Sequence record: OV876907 | Source of the DNA: Escherichia phage UGJNEcP3 | Strand: one strand, 5' to 3' | Length of the DNA stretch: 64,000 bases | Part shown: positions 529-51,350 of the stretch, piece after piece | Layout of the letters: each line of letters starts with the position of its first letter | Numbering within the stretch: position 1 is the stretch's first letter | The notes under the pieces: generated by a model | Seen by the model: the letters and a program-made list of their open reading frames with translations, nothing else | What the model was told of the DNA's origin: nothing | The model's database searches: none | Program-made: the position numbers and the translations under genes

Positions 529-569
529 GGTATTTTTCTCATCTTACGGACGATTAGTTGATAGGTTCT

Positions 570-599
570 ATAGTATCATGTTGCTTGGTAAAGTAAACA
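570..599 (-). promoter_or_regulatory. early-type promoter-like element (GTTTAC -35, 18-nt spacer, TACTAT -10)
   Basis: read on minus strand; member of recurring conserved intergenic module; lies upstream of ORF starting at 528. Confidence 0.45.
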
Positions 600-667
600 C
601 TTTTTTGCTTTAAATTTTCGACGGTATAATGAATCAAGGACTTTGCCTTTCAATTAAACCGGGTGGT

Positions 668-1282
668 TCAGTAAGAAAGAACGGAAAGATTCCAAATGGT
701 GTAATTATTCCATTTAGGATTTCTCTCAATAGAGTCTACGCGCAGCGTAGTTCCCGCAGGGAACATCATCTCATCTTCATCATTAATTAATTGTAAGTTT
801 GCTACACGTGTAGATTCAGGAAATGCGCCTGGGAACTCTTCAGGGGGCGCAGCACATAACATTTTAAAGATTTCTTCCTGATAATTGTACACAAATGGTG
901 CATCATTAATACAAAAGATATTAAATGTGCCGTAGAAGTTATAAGATGCGAAATTCCTTGCCACGTTGAAGTCTTTAGAGAAGCTCATCACGCGGTCGAA
1001 TTCAATTACCGCACCTACACACATTGTGGACTCTAGATACCTCATAGTCTTTTTAGATATGCCGCGATAGAGCTTATCAGGCACTACAGAAGTCAGGTTC
1101 TTACGAATAATTTTGTTCAGAGTTTCCTGGATAGAATCAGGTTTATTTTCCATACACTGCCAGAGCGTGCTCTGTTCTAAATCAGAATACACCTCATCAA
1201 TTTCTATCTGAGTATTCTCACGGAAATCATCGCATTTGACATTGTTGATAAATTCTGCTAATTTATAGCTTGGATATAACAT
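668..1282 (-). CDS. ADP-ribosyltransferase, ModA/ModB-like (paralog 1)
   Basis: R-S-E type motifs: LYRG, SFS, E-D-E; tandem paralog of next ORF; position before soc/56 as for T4 modA/modB. Confidence 0.55.
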   Translation of the reverse strand: MLYPSYKLAEFINNVKCDDFRENTQIEIDEVYSDLEQSTLWQCMENKPDSIQETLNKIIRKNLTSVVPDKLYRGISKKTMRYLESTMCVGAVIEFDRVMSFSKDFNVARNFASYNFYGTFNIFCINDAPFVYNYQEEIFKMLCAAPPEEFPGAFPESTRVANLQLINDEDEMMFPAGTTLRVDSIERNPKWNNYTIWNLSVLSY

Positions 1283-1336
1283 ATTATTCTCCTCAGTTGA
1301 TAGAAAGATAGTACCACAAGCCTCCTTGCCTGTAAA

Positions 1337-1906
1337 CTAAAAATCCAACATTTTTAAATGAATTATTTTGTACTCGATTTCGTATGGATCCCTTTTGACG
1401 GTTTCGATTGCAACAATCTCAAATCGCGATAGACTAGAGACCATGAACTCGCATTCAGTTTCAACCATATCATAGAGGTCGATACGAGATTCATCTATTT
1501 CAAGCTCATCCACATTCCCTGCAAGAACAAGGTCGATAGCATGATTGTAGTAGTCGAAAATGAACGGTGCATTCCTGAGACTTAAAATGGTTTTGGTTCC
1601 ATACTCCCATGCCCCTGCGAACTGACGAGCCTGAGAGTATTGTGTACTAAAAGAAGTAACTCGACCAGGAGACCATTGACACCCTACTGAAAGGAGCTCT
1701 AATTGCTCAAGTTCTCTGGGGGTAATCCCGCGATACAACTCTACTGGAACCGCTGAAGTAACATGCTTGCGAACCAGTTTGTCGAGGTCGTAATGGAAGT
1801 TAGGGTCCTTTTTAGCGTCCAGACATTTTTCTAAAAGATTCTGTTCGTGTTTTGAGAATTTGGAATTGATTCGGTCTTGATAAAGACATTTTTGTTCGAT
1901 GTTCAT
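1337..1906 (-). CDS. ADP-ribosyltransferase, ModA/ModB-like (paralog 2)
   Basis: LYRG, SFS, E-C-E motifs; alignable with 668..1282. Confidence 0.55.
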   Translation of the reverse strand: MNIEQKCLYQDRINSKFSKHEQNLLEKCLDAKKDPNFHYDLDKLVRKHVTSAVPVELYRGITPRELEQLELLSVGCQWSPGRVTSFSTQYSQARQFAGAWEYGTKTILSLRNAPFIFDYYNHAIDLVLAGNVDELEIDESRIDLYDMVETECEFMVSSLSRFEIVAIETVKRDPYEIEYKIIHLKMLDF

Positions 1907-1930: not shown

Positions 1931-1959
1931 ATTATAACATGAAGGGAGGAGGTGTAAAC
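1931..1959 (-). promoter_or_regulatory. promoter-like element GTTTAC-N17-TATAAT
   Basis: minus-strand reading of gtaaac(1954-1959) and attata(1931-1936); immediately upstream of ORF start 1906. Confidence 0.5.
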
Positions 1960-2213
1960 TACTTAAACACACCAAGTGGGGCGCCAAACACTGCAATGTC
2001 AGCAGCCATGCCTAATGAGGATTGGGTATATGAAGTATAGGAGCTTTTTGATTCATAAGAGCTTTTTGTTTCTGGCTTCTCGGCTTCAATCTTAGGAGCT
2101 TTCGCCTGAATATTTTTTTGCTCGATTTCCTTACGAGCCTGTTTACGGTCGATATCCAACGCCGATGTAGGTATATTAGTCAGCCAATTCATTATTTTAC
2201 CCAAGGAGCCCAA
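1959..2213 (-). CDS. hypothetical protein (84 aa)
   Basis: ORF on dominant strand; no motif recognised. Confidence 0.35.
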   Translation of the reverse strand: MGSLGKIMNWLTNIPTSALDIDRKQARKEIEQKNIQAKAPKIEAEKPETKSSYESKSSYTSYTQSSLGMAADIAVFGAPLGVFK

Positions 2214-4670: not shown

Positions 4671-5327
4671 TTATTTCCTATTAAAGTTTTCTATCATTCG
4701 TCGATAACAAATATCAGGATATCCATTATCAACAGCTATTTTATTAAATTTGGTGCGTTTAGGTTTATTATTGTAAACCCATAATTCATAAAGCATATCG
4801 TAACTATTCCATATTTCTCCACGCCTAGGATTTGGCAAACCATATCGAGGGGAATCTTTACCACTAAATCTTCCTTTTCTAGCTTTACTCATATTGGCCT
4901 TGGCTTCATCAGATATAATTTTATCTTTATGAGCCAGGCGCATTTTGGCTTTAGTTTCTTCAGGAGTTTTCATCCCTCTAATCCAGGAAGGTTTACCAAA
5001 CATCGGGTTATTTTTTCCCGAAAATGCTTTAGCGTTATTTTCTCTTAACGTGGCTATAGTTCTACTAGTTAATTTAACTCCTTTATTATATCTCATTAAA
5101 TTAACAGCATAATGTAGACCTTTTACTTCGGGATATATTTTTGTTAAAAGCCTATGAGCTACAAAGTGTTCTCTTGGCAATAAAGCAACTAAATTGTTTT
5201 TATCATCAGAACCATTCATACATCTAGGTATAACATGGTGTTCTTCCGTATAATACGATAAAGACCGCTTAGAACCTCTTAATTTTCCTTTAGATATTAA
5301 TTCCTGGTATATTTTTTCGTAATTCAT
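4671..5327 (-). CDS. HNH homing endonuclease
   Basis: EEHHVIPRCMNGSDDKNNLVALLPREHFVAH HNH core plus repeated GKNNPMFGK / NUMOD-like motifs; free-standing between 56 and 61. Confidence 0.7.
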   Translation of the reverse strand: MNYEKIYQELISKGKLRGSKRSLSYYTEEHHVIPRCMNGSDDKNNLVALLPREHFVAHRLLTKIYPEVKGLHYAVNLMRYNKGVKLTSRTIATLRENNAKAFSGKNNPMFGKPSWIRGMKTPEETKAKMRLAHKDKIISDEAKANMSKARKGRFSGKDSPRYGLPNPRRGEIWNSYDMLYELWVYNNKPKRTKFNKIAVDNGYPDICYRRMIENFNRK

Positions 5328-5360
5328 GGGATAATTGTATCATTAATTTGTAAAGCAAGT

Positions 5361-5368
5361 TATAAATA
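5361..5368 (+). promoter_or_regulatory. late promoter TATAAATA (plus strand)
   Basis: tataaata followed by AGGAGG and ATG at 5390. Confidence 0.45.
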
Positions 5369-5389
5369 TTAATTTAACAGGAGGATAAC

Positions 5390-5590
5390 ATGGGCAGTAT
5401 TTTTTACCAAATCTGGAAATTGGCCGAAAAGAAAGACAAGAAAATGATGTTAGGTTTTCTTGCGCTAGACGTATTCCTTTGGAATCTTTTAGTAGTTCCT
5501 GTAGCCGCTAGCCAAGGGGTAATTTTACCAGCGGTTACAATGGAACACGTATTAAGCATAATTGGATTCTTTAGCGGAGTTCCTGTCTAA
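5390..5590 (+). CDS. small hydrophobic membrane protein (66 aa); rare plus-strand gene
   Basis: occupies a gap with no minus ORF; strong SD AGGAGG; late promoter motif upstream; two hydrophobic segments. Confidence 0.45.
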   Translation: MGSIFYQIWKLAEKKDKKMMLGFLALDVFLWNLLVVPVAASQGVILPAVTMEHVLSIIGFFSGVPV

Positions 5591-6615
5591 ATTTTAGAAT
5601 ATTTTGAAAGCCTCATTTTTGCCATTAACCCTTGGGCTATATTAGCTTTCATATACGCCAATATATCATTTATATCAGCTTTATCTTTCATAACCATATC
5701 ATTTATATCTTTAGAAGGCCATGGAGCCTTGTCCCAGAATAGGACCCTTTCGCCGGCATCAACTAATCGTTGCATACGCTTAATTGTGTCAGGATGACGG
5801 GGTTCATTGTCCATTACCCAAGCACGAGTTTCTTTACATGGAACCATAGCCAAGTCCAACGACCCACCAGTAATTGCTATTGCATTAGGTACGAATAATG
5901 AATCAATAGGACCTTCCATTACCCACACCAATTGACGTTCGTCAACTGTATCCATTCCATATATTTTTGTAGCTTGGTCATGAGCTTTTATTGTAATATA
6001 TTTTTGTGGAGCATCTTTACGCAAGGCTCGGCCCTGAAAACTTTCAATTTGTTTATTCTTATTGAAAATTGGAATAACCAAACGTGGTTCAGGCATTTCT
6101 TTGGAATAGGTCCCTGGATTCACAGAGTTAACTAATGCTGGCCATTCTTTAGTAAACCATAACCGATTCCATTTATTTTCAGGAATGCACCGCAGAGTTA
6201 CATACTTAATAATAGGATGGTCTTTCGGCATTCTATCTAATCGTTCACAGAAATTAAGCTTTTCAATGACAGGCATCTTAGCTTTAATTTTTTCAGATAT
6301 CTCCACCTTAGGTGCAGCTTGTCTCCCAAACGATTGCTCTTTATGTTTCTCAAGAATATATTCGCGATATAAATCAGGCTCATATTCGTATAGGTACTTC
6401 TTAATTCCTGCCGAATAATCACAGTTAAAACAGTGCAGCATTACGGAGCCATCATTAGCTGGATAGGCCCAAAAACGAGCTTTGTTCTCATCTTTTAGGG
6501 AGTCGCCACATACACGACAACGACAGTTTAATTTAAAATCACTACCGGTTACTTGTCTGAATTTAGGTTGGTAATTCAAGGCACGTACAGCAAATTCTCT
6601 ATCGACATATGACAT
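5587..6615 (-). CDS. 61: DNA primase (gene 61)
   Basis: 342 aa; N-terminal zinc ribbon CRCRVCGDS...HCFNCDYS; TOPRIM-like core; position between 56 and 41. Confidence 0.85.
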   Translation of the reverse strand: MSYVDREFAVRALNYQPKFRQVTGSDFKLNCRCRVCGDSLKDENKARFWAYPANDGSVMLHCFNCDYSAGIKKYLYEYEPDLYREYILEKHKEQSFGRQAAPKVEISEKIKAKMPVIEKLNFCERLDRMPKDHPIIKYVTLRCIPENKWNRLWFTKEWPALVNSVNPGTYSKEMPEPRLVIPIFNKNKQIESFQGRALRKDAPQKYITIKAHDQATKIYGMDTVDERQLVWVMEGPIDSLFVPNAIAITGGSLDLAMVPCKETRAWVMDNEPRHPDTIKRMQRLVDAGERVLFWDKAPWPSKDINDMVMKDKADINDILAYMKANIAQGLMAKMRLSKYSKI

Positions 6616-7219: not shown

Positions 7220-7260
7220 ATCAACCTCGATTCATAAAGGCATTAAAAATCTGGTCGTCG
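7217..7260. repeat. 44-bp direct repeat copy A (gene-junction module)
   Basis: about 90% identical to 7569-7612; encodes the C-terminal VDDQIFNAFM(N/K)R of the upstream ORF, its stop and the ATG of the next ORF. Confidence 0.7.
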
Positions 7261-7571
7261 ACAGACTGTTCTTGAGCTTTGTCTACCCCGTTCAAAATGT
7301 CGTTCGCTTCATCAGATAGCATGACTCCAATTTTGGGATTTCCTGTTATCCAGGCGGCGCAATCACGTACATTCTTTTTATCAAATGGATAGCCACGAGT
7401 ATCTTCATAAGGTCCATTCATTACCAGGAATGAGCGAGCCTTTATGATAATATCATCTTTAACGATAATATAACCAATCGCTTGATTAAACCGAGGGTCG
7501 CGGAATTCATAATGAGCATTACCATCATTATTGCTCGCCAGTTCAAAATTCAGAAAATTGTAATCATTCAT
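7221..7571 (-). CDS. hypothetical protein (116 aa), C-terminal VDDQIFNAFMNRG
   Basis: ORF; shares C-terminal tail with 7573..8007. Confidence 0.45.
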   Translation of the reverse strand: MNDYNFLNFELASNNDGNAHYEFRDPRFNQAIGYIIVKDDIIIKARSFLVMNGPYEDTRGYPFDKKNVRDCAAWITGNPKIGVMLSDEANDILNGVDKAQEQSVDDQIFNAFMNRG

Positions 7572-7612
7572 ATCAATCTCGCTTCATGAAGGCATTAAAA
7601 ATCTGGTCGTCA
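7569..7612. repeat. 44-bp direct repeat copy B
   Basis: see copy A. Confidence 0.7.
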
Positions 7613-8007
7613 ACTGAATATACAGGGGTTTCCAGAATTTTCAACAGGCTGTTTTTGATGTACTTGCTAGGGATATCCATATTAACGCAGTCGTTCAATT
7701 CGTTGTTAGGGATGATGTCTTTAAATTCAAACCCTTCAAACTCAACCTTGTCAGGAATACCATCAGCGAAAAAATAAACCAATTGGTGCATTGTATTGCA
7801 TGAAAATAATTTAGACTTCACTGCAATAAGTTCTTGCCAATGGTTTAATTCTCTATTAAGAAGTTTATGGGCAAATACAATCCTATCATCACTATCAACA
7901 ATAAAATAGCCCAGGTATTGATGGTCATCGTTCCAATACATCCTGTATGCCTGGGCATTTGGATTTTTACAACGAAGTTTTTTGATAACCAAATTTCTGT
8001 TAATCAT
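7573..8007 (-). CDS. hypothetical protein (144 aa from internal ATG), C-terminal VDDQIFNAFMKRD
   Basis: track ORF extends to 8094, overlapping the upstream gene; ATG at 8007 has SD AGGTGA. Confidence 0.4.
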   Translation of the reverse strand: MINRNLVIKKLRCKNPNAQAYRMYWNDDHQYLGYFIVDSDDRIVFAHKLLNRELNHWQELIAVKSKLFSCNTMHQLVYFFADGIPDKVEFEGFEFKDIIPNNELNDCVNMDIPSKYIKNSLLKILETPVYSVDDQIFNAFMKRD

Positions 8008-12404: not shown

Positions 12405-13298
12405 TTAAAGGACCACGTCCTCATAACTTGGCATTTCGTGCTCAGAATGGATATGGGCACCGAAATAAATGAATTCAGCTAGACCAGGATGGAATACTAA
12501 ACCAGGATTCTCGTGATAAATGATATGAGGTCTTGATTTCAGAATCTGATAATATTCAACCTTACTAGGTTTGAATTTAATAATCTCTACATCAGGACGA
12601 TAGTCTTCACGTTTAAATGAATCATTCGGGTCGGTGATATAAAGGCGAGAACCTTCAGCTGCAGCTTGGTCTACAACTCTTTCGAATTGATAACATTTAT
12701 CAGAGATACGGAATGGATGGAAAATACCATCAATTTTAATAGGCGCTAGACCTTCAGAGTAACGCTCAATTACTGCGGGATTAATTACCTTTTGGTCTAC
12801 AAAAATCTTATCAGAGGACGCACCTCGTGACACCAGGACGTCTTTCTGGCATTGATTCAGGACTGTAGTATAAATCGAACGTTCAACTGAGGACACGTCG
12901 GTATCAATAAACTCGTCGATATAATAACGAGGAACTTCAGGGTCCATTGTAATGTTAAAGTTGAATTGTACAGTCTGAGTGCCATCATAACCTGTGATAT
13001 CGGTTACTAATCCTGAGCAGTCATAGTATTCGATTAACGAATCAACAACGAACTCGTTTTCAGACCAAAAATGTTTACGAGTTTCATAAGCATTTTCTTT
13101 ATACCAAAGCGGTACAAAATTCAGTTCAGGAAATAATTCAATGCATTCTTTGATATCGCTCGAATTTCTAGGATAAGCCAGATAATCACCTGGGCAAGCA
13201 CGGTTTAAATGGAGTTGAAAATTACCGTCCTTAAGGACGGCATATTCACCTGTTTCGTAACTACGCATACTGAAAATAGGAACGATAAACAGACTCAT
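12405..13298 (-). CDS. hypothetical protein in the beta-glucosyltransferase slot; candidate DNA-base transferase
   Basis: 297 aa; sits where T4 beta-gt lies (between uvsX and 42); no resemblance to T4 beta-gt seen by eye; ATGA overlap with gene 42 homolog. Confidence 0.5.
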   Translation of the reverse strand: MSLFIVPIFSMRSYETGEYAVLKDGNFQLHLNRACPGDYLAYPRNSSDIKECIELFPELNFVPLWYKENAYETRKHFWSENEFVVDSLIEYYDCSGLVTDITGYDGTQTVQFNFNITMDPEVPRYYIDEFIDTDVSSVERSIYTTVLNQCQKDVLVSRGASSDKIFVDQKVINPAVIERYSEGLAPIKIDGIFHPFRISDKCYQFERVVDQAAAEGSRLYITDPNDSFKREDYRPDVEIIKFKPSKVEYYQILKSRPHIIYHENPGLVFHPGLAEFIYFGAHIHSEHEMPSYEDVVL

Positions 13299-44798: not shown

Positions 44799-45254
44799 TT
44801 ACTTAGGCTCATAATCTACCACCACCAAATTAATATCAGGAGTAAACAAATTAATCAATTGATAAACCTTATCCCAATCACCACCGGCAATACCACAACC
44901 AATACGAGGGATATAAATTCTCGGTTTAAACAAAAGACCTTTTGCTTGTTGATTTAATTCTATCATACAGTTTACTAAAGCACTGTAATCAAGATTAGGA
45001 CCTGGTTCATATTGCGTATAAAGATTATAGCAAATTTGGCCGTTATTGCCTGTGGCTTTAGTAAATGTTCCAAGTTTTGCTGCATCACCTAAATAGGTGG
45101 CTTCTCTATCAATAGCAAGAATAGGTGAATACGCCTTAGCCAATTGACCTGCTACACCTGAACCCATAGTATGGAAACAGTTACACCCATGAGCAACGTT
45201 ATTACCTTGAAGAAACAGGGCGACGATATCGCCCTTAATATAATCAATAATCAT
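44799..45254 (-). CDS. macro-domain-like protein (ADP-ribose binding/processing)
   Basis: GDIVALF...NVAHGCNC...GSGVAGQL resembles macro-domain glycine-rich motifs. Confidence 0.45.
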   Translation of the reverse strand: MIIDYIKGDIVALFLQGNNVAHGCNCFHTMGSGVAGQLAKAYSPILAIDREATYLGDAAKLGTFTKATGNNGQICYNLYTQYEPGPNLDYSALVNCMIELNQQAKGLLFKPRIYIPRIGCGIAGGDWDKVYQLINLFTPDINLVVVDYEPK

Positions 45255-50900: not shown

Positions 50901-51350
50901 TCAAAAGAGCGAATCTAAAACCTTAAACATCGACGGGCCCATGACATATTCCCATTGCGGACGTTTAATCAAGGCAAAAGCATCAAATTCAGGAATAGTA
51001 CGACCATCAGGGAACGTATGGTAAGCTGTACATTTGCAATCCTTGAACTGCTCGTGTTCCACAGGCACTGTATATAAGAACAGATGTAGATTCTTATTGC
51101 TTGAATATTTGAACTCACCTAGGTCTTTCAGGAATGCAGGATCGTATGCTGTGAATCCAATCTCTTCTTCGGTTTCGCGCATTGCCGCTTGAATAGGCTC
51201 TTCGCCTGGTTCGACATGACCCTTAGGAATGTCCCATTTATGACGCATGTTCTCTGGATTACGAGAGCCTGTTACACGGCCCATGACCAGTTCTTTATCA
51301 ACGGTCATGAATAAAATACCTGCCGATAATTCCTTAGCTTTCTTACTCAT
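50901..51350 (-). CDS. nudE: Nudix hydrolase (NudE-like)
   Basis: Nudix box GHVEPGEEPIQAAMRETEEEIG; internal ATG 51350 preferred over track start. Confidence 0.7.
   Translation of the reverse strand: MSKKAKELSAGILFMTVDKELVMGRVTGSRNPENMRHKWDIPKGHVEPGEEPIQAAMRETEEEIGFTAYDPAFLKDLGEFKYSSNKNLHLFLYTVPVEHEQFKDCKCTAYHTFPDGRTIPEFDAFALIKRPQWEYVMGPSMFKVLDSLF

Follow-up and report, generated by a model that had tools for sequence, protein, structure and literature searches.

Two ModA/ModB-type ADP-ribosyltransferase genes and a Tk.4/AdfM-type macrodomain gene in the Dhakavirus Escherichia phage UGJNEcP3

Three ADP-ribose-related genes in one phage genome

Two adjacent open reading frames (ORFs) near the start of a 64,000-nucleotide (nt) stretch of the Escherichia phage UGJNEcP3 genome (sequence record OV876907; the whole stretch is referred to here as the window) carry the motifs of R-S-E ADP-ribosyltransferases (ARTs), and a gene for a macro-domain-like protein lies elsewhere in the same window. 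The locus raises the question of whether these genes form a system in which ADP-ribose is attached by one set of enzymes and read or erased by another, with the macro gene as an accessory addition, as a preliminary description made from the sequence had implied, or whether each is a phage gene with an established counterpart in T4. The best overall explanation is very probably the latter: the three are standard T-even genes, modA, modB and tk.4 (renamed adfM), in a Dhakavirus. All three are already known and annotated, and the finding is thus not a new one; it confirms the presence, in a Dhakavirus, of the usual T-even set of ADP-ribosylation genes together with the usual tk.4 macro domain.

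Both adjacent genes code for R-S-ExE ADP-ribosyltransferases

The two genes, hereafter ORF1 and ORF2, are as follows.

668-1282, minus strand: ORF1, positional ModA orthologue, an R-S-ExE mono-ADP-ribosyltransferase of 204 amino acids (aa)
1337-1906, minus strand: ORF2, positional ModB orthologue, an R-S-ExE mono-ADP-ribosyltransferase of 189 aa

The LYRG, SFS and E-x-E motifs noted in the preliminary description are present in both ORFs at these coordinates, and both are on the minus strand, which had been left unstated. In ORF1, where the ART core is preceded by four N-terminal helices, the motifs are at residues 71-74 (R73), 100-102 (S100-F-S102) and 169-171 (E169-D-E171), and in ORF2 they are at residues 57-60 (R59), 85-87 (S85-F-S87) and 151-153 (E151-C-E153). 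No variation is seen at the Arg, at the Gly that follows it, at the first Ser or at either Glu in an alignment of 26 sequences (both ORFs and 24 database homologues), nor in T4 ModA and ModB; the third position of S-x-S is Ser in at least 90% of the homologues. Within the R-S-E family, the Arg positions nicotinamide adenine dinucleotide (NAD+), S-x-S stabilises the pocket and Glu promotes transfer, and E-x-E enzymes typically modify arginine (PMC8120803). The T4 ModB double substitution R73A/G74A abolishes both ADP-ribosylation and RNAylation and reduces the burst (PMC10468400), and the equivalent residues are kept in ORF1 and ORF2, with ModB R73 aligning with ORF2 R59.

Database matches place both proteins in the same family, far above chance. 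They match phrog_832, 'RNA polymerase ADP-ribosylase' (ORF1, E = 2.7e-44; ORF2, E = 3.7e-37), and T4 ModA and ModB are matched by BLASTP (E ~1e-25). ORF1 and ORF2 are true paralogues as judged by their 31% identity over 184 aa (BLASTP, E = 3e-26). The Pfam entry PF26816 is found in precomputed annotation on 24 of the 24 database homologues; our own Pfam scan gave only a sub-threshold DRAT match for ORF1 (E = 0.083) and nothing for ORF2, because the copy of Pfam used predates PF26816. NCBIfam and PADLOC returned nothing meaningful for either ART (XopAI, 17 bits; GajB, 17 bits). An exhaustive profile search for the Mod family recovered 41 representatives at E <= 1e-10, and the family is thus compact.

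Searches of PDB sequences with both ARTs gave chance matches only, and the fold was therefore predicted. The AlphaFold2 model of ORF1 has a mean predicted local distance difference test score (pLDDT) of 91.4 and a predicted template modelling score (pTM) of 0.85. When it was compared with the PDB using Foldseek, the best 50 listed matches were all R-S-E ADP-ribosyltransferases (E down to 1.7e-6, probability 1.00), and they include C3 exoenzymes, Certhrax, HopU1, XopAI, Plx2a, CDTa/iota Ia, ExoS/ExoT, Vis and 6DRH, the structure of an ART toxin/immunity pair. ORF2 is predicted to share the ART fold through its homology to ORF1 (E = 3e-26).

The genomic setting points the same way. The first 6 kb of the window is 100% identical to Escherichia phage UGJNEcP4 (OV877765.1; Straboviridae, Tevenvirinae, Dhakavirus), with window position 1 corresponding to position 12639 of that record, and IME08, WG01, KIT01 and JS10 are relatives that match at 90-97% (IME08 at 94%). 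The gene order around the ARTs is dda, dda.1, srd, ART, ART, modA.2, modA.3, modA.4 and srh, followed later by soc, 56 and the primase gene, and the tandem ART pair lies between srd and modA.2 in the same order in the annotated OV877765.1, in IME08 and in T4. Both ARTs are labelled 'RNA polymerase ADP-ribosylase' in OV877765.1 and named modA and modB in IME08; the window lies in a T4-like phage's early region, for which annotation already exists in the deposited record. Family membership (phrog_832), synteny, invariant catalytic residues and the ORF1 fold all agree, and both ORFs belong with T4 ModA/ModB among the R-S-ExE ADP-ribosyltransferases, as the preliminary description had proposed.

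ORF1 is the positional ModA and ORF2 the positional ModB

Position offers the simplest way to tell the two ARTs apart: ORF1 adjoins srd as T4 modA does, and ORF2 lies upstream of modA as T4 modB does. In the protein alignment (A1), the identities to ModA and ModB are 37% and 30%, respectively, for ORF1, and 25% and 33% for ORF2. By BLASTP, ORF1 shares 39% identity with T4 ModA over 166 aa, and ORF2 shares 33.5% with T4 ModB over 164 aa (85 bits); ORF2 has no BLASTP match to T4 ModA, and tblastn against the T4 record finds modB only. The preference of ORF1 for ModA arises from residues 126 onward, the part that holds E-x-E, which is clearly more ModA-like (43% versus 26%, and 33% versus 19%). 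A neighbour-joining tree of 51 Mod-family proteins (200 bootstraps) places ORF1 in a clade with T4 ModA and ORF2 in a clade on the ModB side. We accept the positional orthology, with ORF1 as the putative modA and ORF2 as the putative modB; the sequences agree with it, although not strongly.

Several observations weigh against so simple an assignment. The BLASTP score of ORF1 is slightly higher with T4 ModB (89.0 bits) than with ModA (86.7 bits), and ORF1 keeps the ModB-like LYRG and SFS where T4 ModA has LWRG and SAS. Bootstrap support is 6% for the grouping of ORF1 with ModA and 0% for the smallest clade containing both ORF2 and ModB, and the neighbour-joining phylogeny does not settle a one-to-one orthology with ModA and ModB. 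These observations bear on an alternative in which the two ARTs are not one-to-one functional equivalents of T4 ModA and ModB and their targets are divided or shifted differently in Dhakavirus; ORF1 may, for example, keep ModB-like targets or RNAylation, or one copy may be mainly anti-defence. The near-equal scores of ORF1 fit such a division, as do its N-terminal helices (34% versus 31%) and R-to-S core (37% versus 41%), which are about as near to ModB as to ModA, and the lack of resolution at the deep nodes of the Mod-family tree. One protein of the ORF1 clade is named 'modB' in UniRef, and the HIDEN-SEQ preprint marks the Bas37 ModA orthologue in its Mokosh type I screen plot. However, the srd-adjacent position and the reciprocal pattern of identities fit simple orthology, the half of ORF1 from residue 126 is clearly the more ModA-like one, and ORF2 matches ModB alone, and we regard a redistribution of targets as unlikely. 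The positional assignment is retained here, with the proviso that BLAST scores put ORF1 as near to T4 ModB as to ModA, and that caution is therefore needed in carrying over T4 targets.

Predicted roles of the two ADP-ribosyltransferases

T4 ModA modifies the two RNA polymerase alpha subunits at Arg265, and T4 ModB modifies S1, EF-Tu, trigger factor and others (PMC8120803; T4 record notes); ModB also RNAylates rS1 and rL2 using NAD-capped RNA (PMC10468400). The present analysis contributes homology, synteny, catalytic residues and folds, and from the T4 experiments we infer all substrates and activities in UGJNEcP3, including the T4-specific targets of ORF1 and ORF2; identities of 30-39% (ARTs) and 54% (macro protein) weigh against too direct a transfer.

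We predict that ORF1 and ORF2 form a paralogous pair of mono-ADP-ribosyltransferases in the R-S-ExE (cholera-toxin/C3-like) clade, both expressed early. If they work as in T4, they would bind NAD+ via the conserved Arg and Ser-x-Ser, and the Glu-x-Glu pair would transfer ADP-ribose onto the side chains of arginines in host proteins. For the ModA orthologue, the most likely target is Arg265 in the alpha subunits of RNA polymerase; for the ModB orthologue, the most likely targets are ribosomal protein S1, EF-Tu, trigger factor and rL2, and NAD-capped RNA may also serve as the donor ('RNAylation'). Together, the pair would help to redirect host transcription and translation toward the phage.

The macro protein is an orthologue of T4 Tk.4 (AdfM)

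The third gene is described as follows.

44799-45254, minus strand: Tk.4/AdfM orthologue, a stand-alone macro domain of 151 aa of the TARG1/Poa1p/DarG-like class

Its product was described initially as macro-domain-like, and it is a real macro domain. Pfam Macro (PF01661) scores 31.1 bits against a gathering cut-off of 22 and aligns over profile positions 2-117 of 118, phrog_335 is matched at E = 4.6e-65, and the near-invariant motifs are H22-G-C-N-C and P116-R-I-G-C-G-I-A-G-G. The sequence matches BT1257, SCO6735, Poa1p, DarG and TARG1 in the PDB. An AlphaFold2 model built on 121 homologues (pLDDT 96.4, pTM 0.91) has TARG1 (E = 6e-10; template modelling (TM) scores of 0.79-0.85), Poa1p, BT1257 and the M. 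tuberculosis and T. aquaticus DarG macrodomains (TM 0.71-0.75) as its best Foldseek matches, and coronavirus Mac1 is also among the matches listed. The preliminary description had named fold prediction as the analysis that could overturn its ART and macro assignments; neither was rejected, with the ART result resting on the ORF1 model.

Which macro protein this is can be settled by comparison with T4, which the preliminary description did not credit with a macro domain. That premise was mistaken. T4 tk.4 (NP_049723) is 54% identical over its full length (153 aligned positions, E = 2e-65), the order tk-tk.4-vs-vs.1-regB is common to T4 and the window, and the T4 record notes that tk.4 'contains A1pp phosphatase motif'; tk.4 orthologues had already matched the A1pp domain in a 2006 comparison of T4-like genomes (PMC1524935). 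By sequence and gene order, the 44799-45254 gene is the orthologue of T4 tk.4 (adfM). It is also not the accessory addition that had been suggested, and is instead an inherited T-even gene with the same synteny as in T4. We also considered a recent accessory acquisition of the gene, which we reject given the T4 synteny and the homologues in 2,720 phage records.

A function for tk.4 comes from a T4 transposon-sequencing preprint of November 2025, in which tk.4 was the single gene needed when DarTG2 was present (10.1101/2025.11.20.689424). A clean tk.4 knockout sensitised T4 to DarTG2, and the gene was renamed adfM, for anti-DarT factor Macrodomain; its authors propose that AdfM strips DarT2's ADP-ribose from DNA as DarG does (10.1101/2025.11.20.689424). 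Of the earlier suggestion of an anti-defence or regulatory addition, the anti-defence part is therefore supported by T4 tk.4 acting against DarTG2, and the addition part fails, T4 having the gene too. In NCBIfam and PADLOC, DarG models are the sole family matches of the macro protein, and the match is confined to their N-terminal macro half, at profile positions 3-149 (of 338) in NCBIfam, where it scores 21.3 bits and the cut-off is 250, and 3-146 (of 329) in PADLOC. The C-terminal DarT-binding domain of DarG is not present, since 151 aa leaves no room for it. The AdfM orthologue is a macro domain that stands alone and is similar to DarG's N-terminal half, and it would remove the ADP-ribose attached by DarT2 to single-stranded DNA at thymidines. 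By analogy with T4, the macro protein most likely protects replicating phage DNA from host DarTG2 defence. A point against extending this role to UGJNEcP3 is the nature of the AdfM evidence, which consists of T4 genetics in a single preprint.

The database labels 'phosphatase' and 'A1pp' suggest another function, in which the macro protein would serve metabolism, as an ADP-ribose-1''-phosphate phosphatase or an O-acetyl-ADP-ribose deacetylase that clears NAD-derived by-products, and would not act on DNA. Yeast Poa1p is among its best fold and sequence matches (E = 1.3e-9, TM 0.80), the protein is without the TARG1 Lys/Asp pair, and it has an H-x-C-N-C-type motif in common with the Poa1p class. 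However, the 'phosphatase' label comes from the domain name and not from an assay, T4 genetics points to DarTG2 protection as the selectable function, and DarG is the sole curated NCBIfam and PADLOC model matched. A purely metabolic role is very unlikely, and phosphatase or deacetylase activity could in any case coexist with the anti-DarT2 activity, which we favour as the function of this protein.

Homologues of Tk.4 are also found outside recognised phage records. A 43%-identical homologue is on a 137.6-kb E. coli 'plasmid' (CP057073.1), possibly a phage-plasmid. On Bacillus thuringiensis/velezensis plasmids of ~220-235 kb, the region that matches Tk.4 is annotated within a 'SLOG family protein', which suggests that macro and SLOG are fused or neighbours there.

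The AdfM family lacks the catalytic lysine of DarG

How the AdfM orthologue would act on ADP-ribosylated DNA is complicated by its active site. In a profile-to-PDB alignment, the catalytic Lys84 of TARG1 (in 'LITKK') aligns with Gln81 and TARG1 Asp125 with Ala123 in PRIGCGIAGG. Among 121 family members, conservation of Gln81 is at least 90%, T4 Tk.4 has Gln too, and BT1257 and SCO6735 share Gln at the Lys84 position. DarG Lys80, the counterpart of TARG1 Lys84, is reported to be essential, and DarG is itself without an acidic residue equivalent to TARG1 Asp125 (PMC8120803). The correspondence between Gln81 and DarG Lys80 was drawn from the TARG1 alignment and a review (PMC8120803) and not from a direct alignment with DarG. 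None of the best 30 of 48 matches to Tk.4 in the plasmid collection is annotated as DarG.

Because Gln81 replaces the catalytic Lys, a DarG-like hydrolytic mechanism for AdfM is, on these alignments, no more than a candidate. One reading of the substitution, which we think quite unlikely, is that the AdfM family counters DarT2 by different chemistry, or by binding and not by hydrolysis, and may also have a second substrate, which would link it to the phage's own ADP-ribosylation programme; candidates for such a substrate may be ester-linked protein ADP-ribose, ADP-ribose-1''-phosphate, or ADP-ribose-linked RNA from the ModB/NAD-cap pathway. That the AdfM family is without the lysine essential in DarG is a point of specialist interest, and it is, together with the intermediate ModA/ModB character of ORF1, one of the curiosities that remain at these loci.

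Nothing supports a writer-eraser pair

Both ARTs and a macro domain are encoded in one genome, macrodomains are generic ADP-ribose binders and hydrolases, TARG1-like enzymes de-MARylate proteins (that is, remove mono-ADP-ribose; PMC8120803), and ModB modifies itself in vitro (PMC10468400). These points favour a scheme in which the macro protein reads or removes ADP-ribose, or RNA-ADP-ribose, attached by ModA/ModB or Alt to host or phage proteins, making the modification reversible or limiting self-modification. The genes themselves speak against it. A distance of 43 kb separates the ART genes from the macro gene, each lies in a different conserved cluster, and their phylogenetic spread differs: Tk.4-type macro proteins occur in 2,720 phage records and Mod-type ARTs in ~1,060, so that the macro protein is more than twice as widespread, and its records include Pseudomonas, Vibrio, Acinetobacter and Aeromonas phages, whereas Mod ARTs are found essentially in enterobacterial T-evens alone.

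The chemistry is unfavourable too. E-x-E ARTs modify arginine, and arginine-ADP-ribose is removed by DraG/ARH-type enzymes, whereas MacroD/TARG1-type enzymes act on ester-linked (Asp/Glu) ADP-ribose, O-acetyl-ADP-ribose and nucleic-acid ADP-ribose (PMC8120803); a macro domain is the wrong class of hydrolase for an arginine mark. Moreover, T4 tk.4 already has a specific phenotype, against DarTG2 (10.1101/2025.11.20.689424). The writer-reader or writer-eraser link implied in the preliminary description is very unlikely on these grounds, and we conclude that the pathway of the macro protein is most likely distinct from that of the ARTs, with no support for a writer-eraser pair. The practical value of the analysis is as a correction: a macro domain, Tk.4/AdfM, is present in T4 after all, and the role known for it lies in countering DarTG2 and not in erasing ModA/ModB marks.

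Searches of the window for other ADP-ribose genes found no alt and no NADAR; AdfN, which is T4 30.3, is located elsewhere in the genome. Two further loci touch on the subject. At 7221-7571 (minus strand), a 116-aa ORF has a sub-threshold Pfam match to AdfA, Anti-DarT factor A (PF23813; E = 1.2e-4; 22 bits, the cut-off being 27), restricted to the C-terminal part of the profile (positions 130-211 of 211), and the adjoining 144-aa ORF at 7573-8007 (minus strand) has no Pfam match. In PHROGs both fall in unknown-function families alone (phrog_4122 and phrog_8539), and their location between the primase and spackle genes corresponds to the T4 61.1-61.4 region. They may be a diverged or split AdfA, and hence a second candidate anti-DarT gene beside tk.4. 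The other locus, 50901-51350 (minus strand), encodes a Nudix hydrolase (Pfam NUDIX, E = 7.6e-15; phrog_1185, E = 1.6e-71) and adjoins the endolysin gene, the position of T4 nudE (e.1). T4 NudE is reported to hydrolyse ADP-ribose, flavin adenine dinucleotide (FAD) and diadenosine triphosphate (Ap3A) (PMC9503650), and this is another NAD/ADP-ribose-related gene in the window, one absent from the preliminary description.

Expression signals and neighbouring genes

T4 early promoters typically have GTTTAC at -35, and two promoter-like sites with this motif lie upstream of the ARTs.

1931-1958, minus strand: sigma-70/T4-early-type promoter-like site upstream of ORF2 (GTTTACA, 16 nt, TATAAT; 11 of 12 matches)
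1308-1336, minus strand: weaker promoter-like site upstream of ORF1 (GTTTACA, 17 nt, TACTAT; 9 of 12 matches)

The second is within the 54-nt gap between ORF1 and ORF2 and overlaps a short hairpin. Both are consensus matches only, and the regional total of such sites in the consensus scan is no higher than in shuffled sequence. Each ART gene also has a ribosome-binding site ahead of its ATG, GGAGG for ORF2 (ATG at 1906) and GAGGAG for ORF1 (ATG at 1282). Reading by eye, we noted another GTTTAC ... TACTAT promoter-like motif at ~560-600 (minus strand), in the 139-nt gap that separates the ModA orthologue from srd, upstream of srd; srd and the ModA and ModB orthologues may each have their own promoter-like site.

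Two differences from relatives were seen nearby. Between the ModB orthologue and modA.2, a small ORF at 1959-2213 (minus strand; annotated as a hypothetical gene at 1959-2192) contains a Ser/Tyr-rich low-complexity stretch, KSSYESKSSYTSYTQSS; the T4 counterpart of this stretch is only a 67-nt gap, and IME08 annotates no gene there. At ~5000-5600 of the window (IME08 5157-5813), UGJNEcP3 has a 100-aa hypothetical gene and a short plus-strand ORF, whereas the mobE homing endonuclease separates gene 56 from the primase gene in IME08, and segF lies beside gene 56 in T4. This difference in content is of the kind usually produced by homing-endonuclease turnover among T-even relatives.

Comparison with known systems

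The closest characterised counterpart of the macro protein is T4 Tk.4, with which it shares the HGCNCFHTMGSGVAGQL, LYTQ and PRIG-G motifs; between tk and tk.4, T4 has three small genes (tk.1-tk.3) and the window phage has one. The DarG macrodomains of M. tuberculosis (5M3I) and T. aquaticus (5M31/5M3E) and human TARG1 (4J5R) have the same macro fold class (TM 0.71-0.85, probability 1.00), but sequence identity to them is just 16-22%.

T4 ModA (NP_049635) resembles ORF1 in adjoining srd (immediately upstream), in its length of 200 aa compared with 204 aa, and in the conserved R, S-x-S and E-x-E. T4 ModB (NP_049636) resembles ORF2 in lying upstream of modA and in its LYRG and S-F-S/T motifs, and the E-x-E of ORF2 aligns with ModB E171-Q-E173; ORF2 is the shorter protein (189 aa, with 207 aa in T4 ModB), being without ~14 N-terminal residues and without an insertion before the E-x-E region. 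T4 modB and modA overlap by 4 nt, whereas ORF2 and ORF1 are separated by the 54-nt spacer with its promoter-like site.

Among bacterial toxins, the C3 exoenzyme, Certhrax, HopU1 and iota/CDTa have the same fold and catalytic triad layout as ORF1 (Foldseek E ~2e-6, probability 1.00), but with only 9-18% identity and TM scores of 0.4-0.5. Unlike those toxins, the phage ARTs would act inside their bacterial host and on bacterial proteins.

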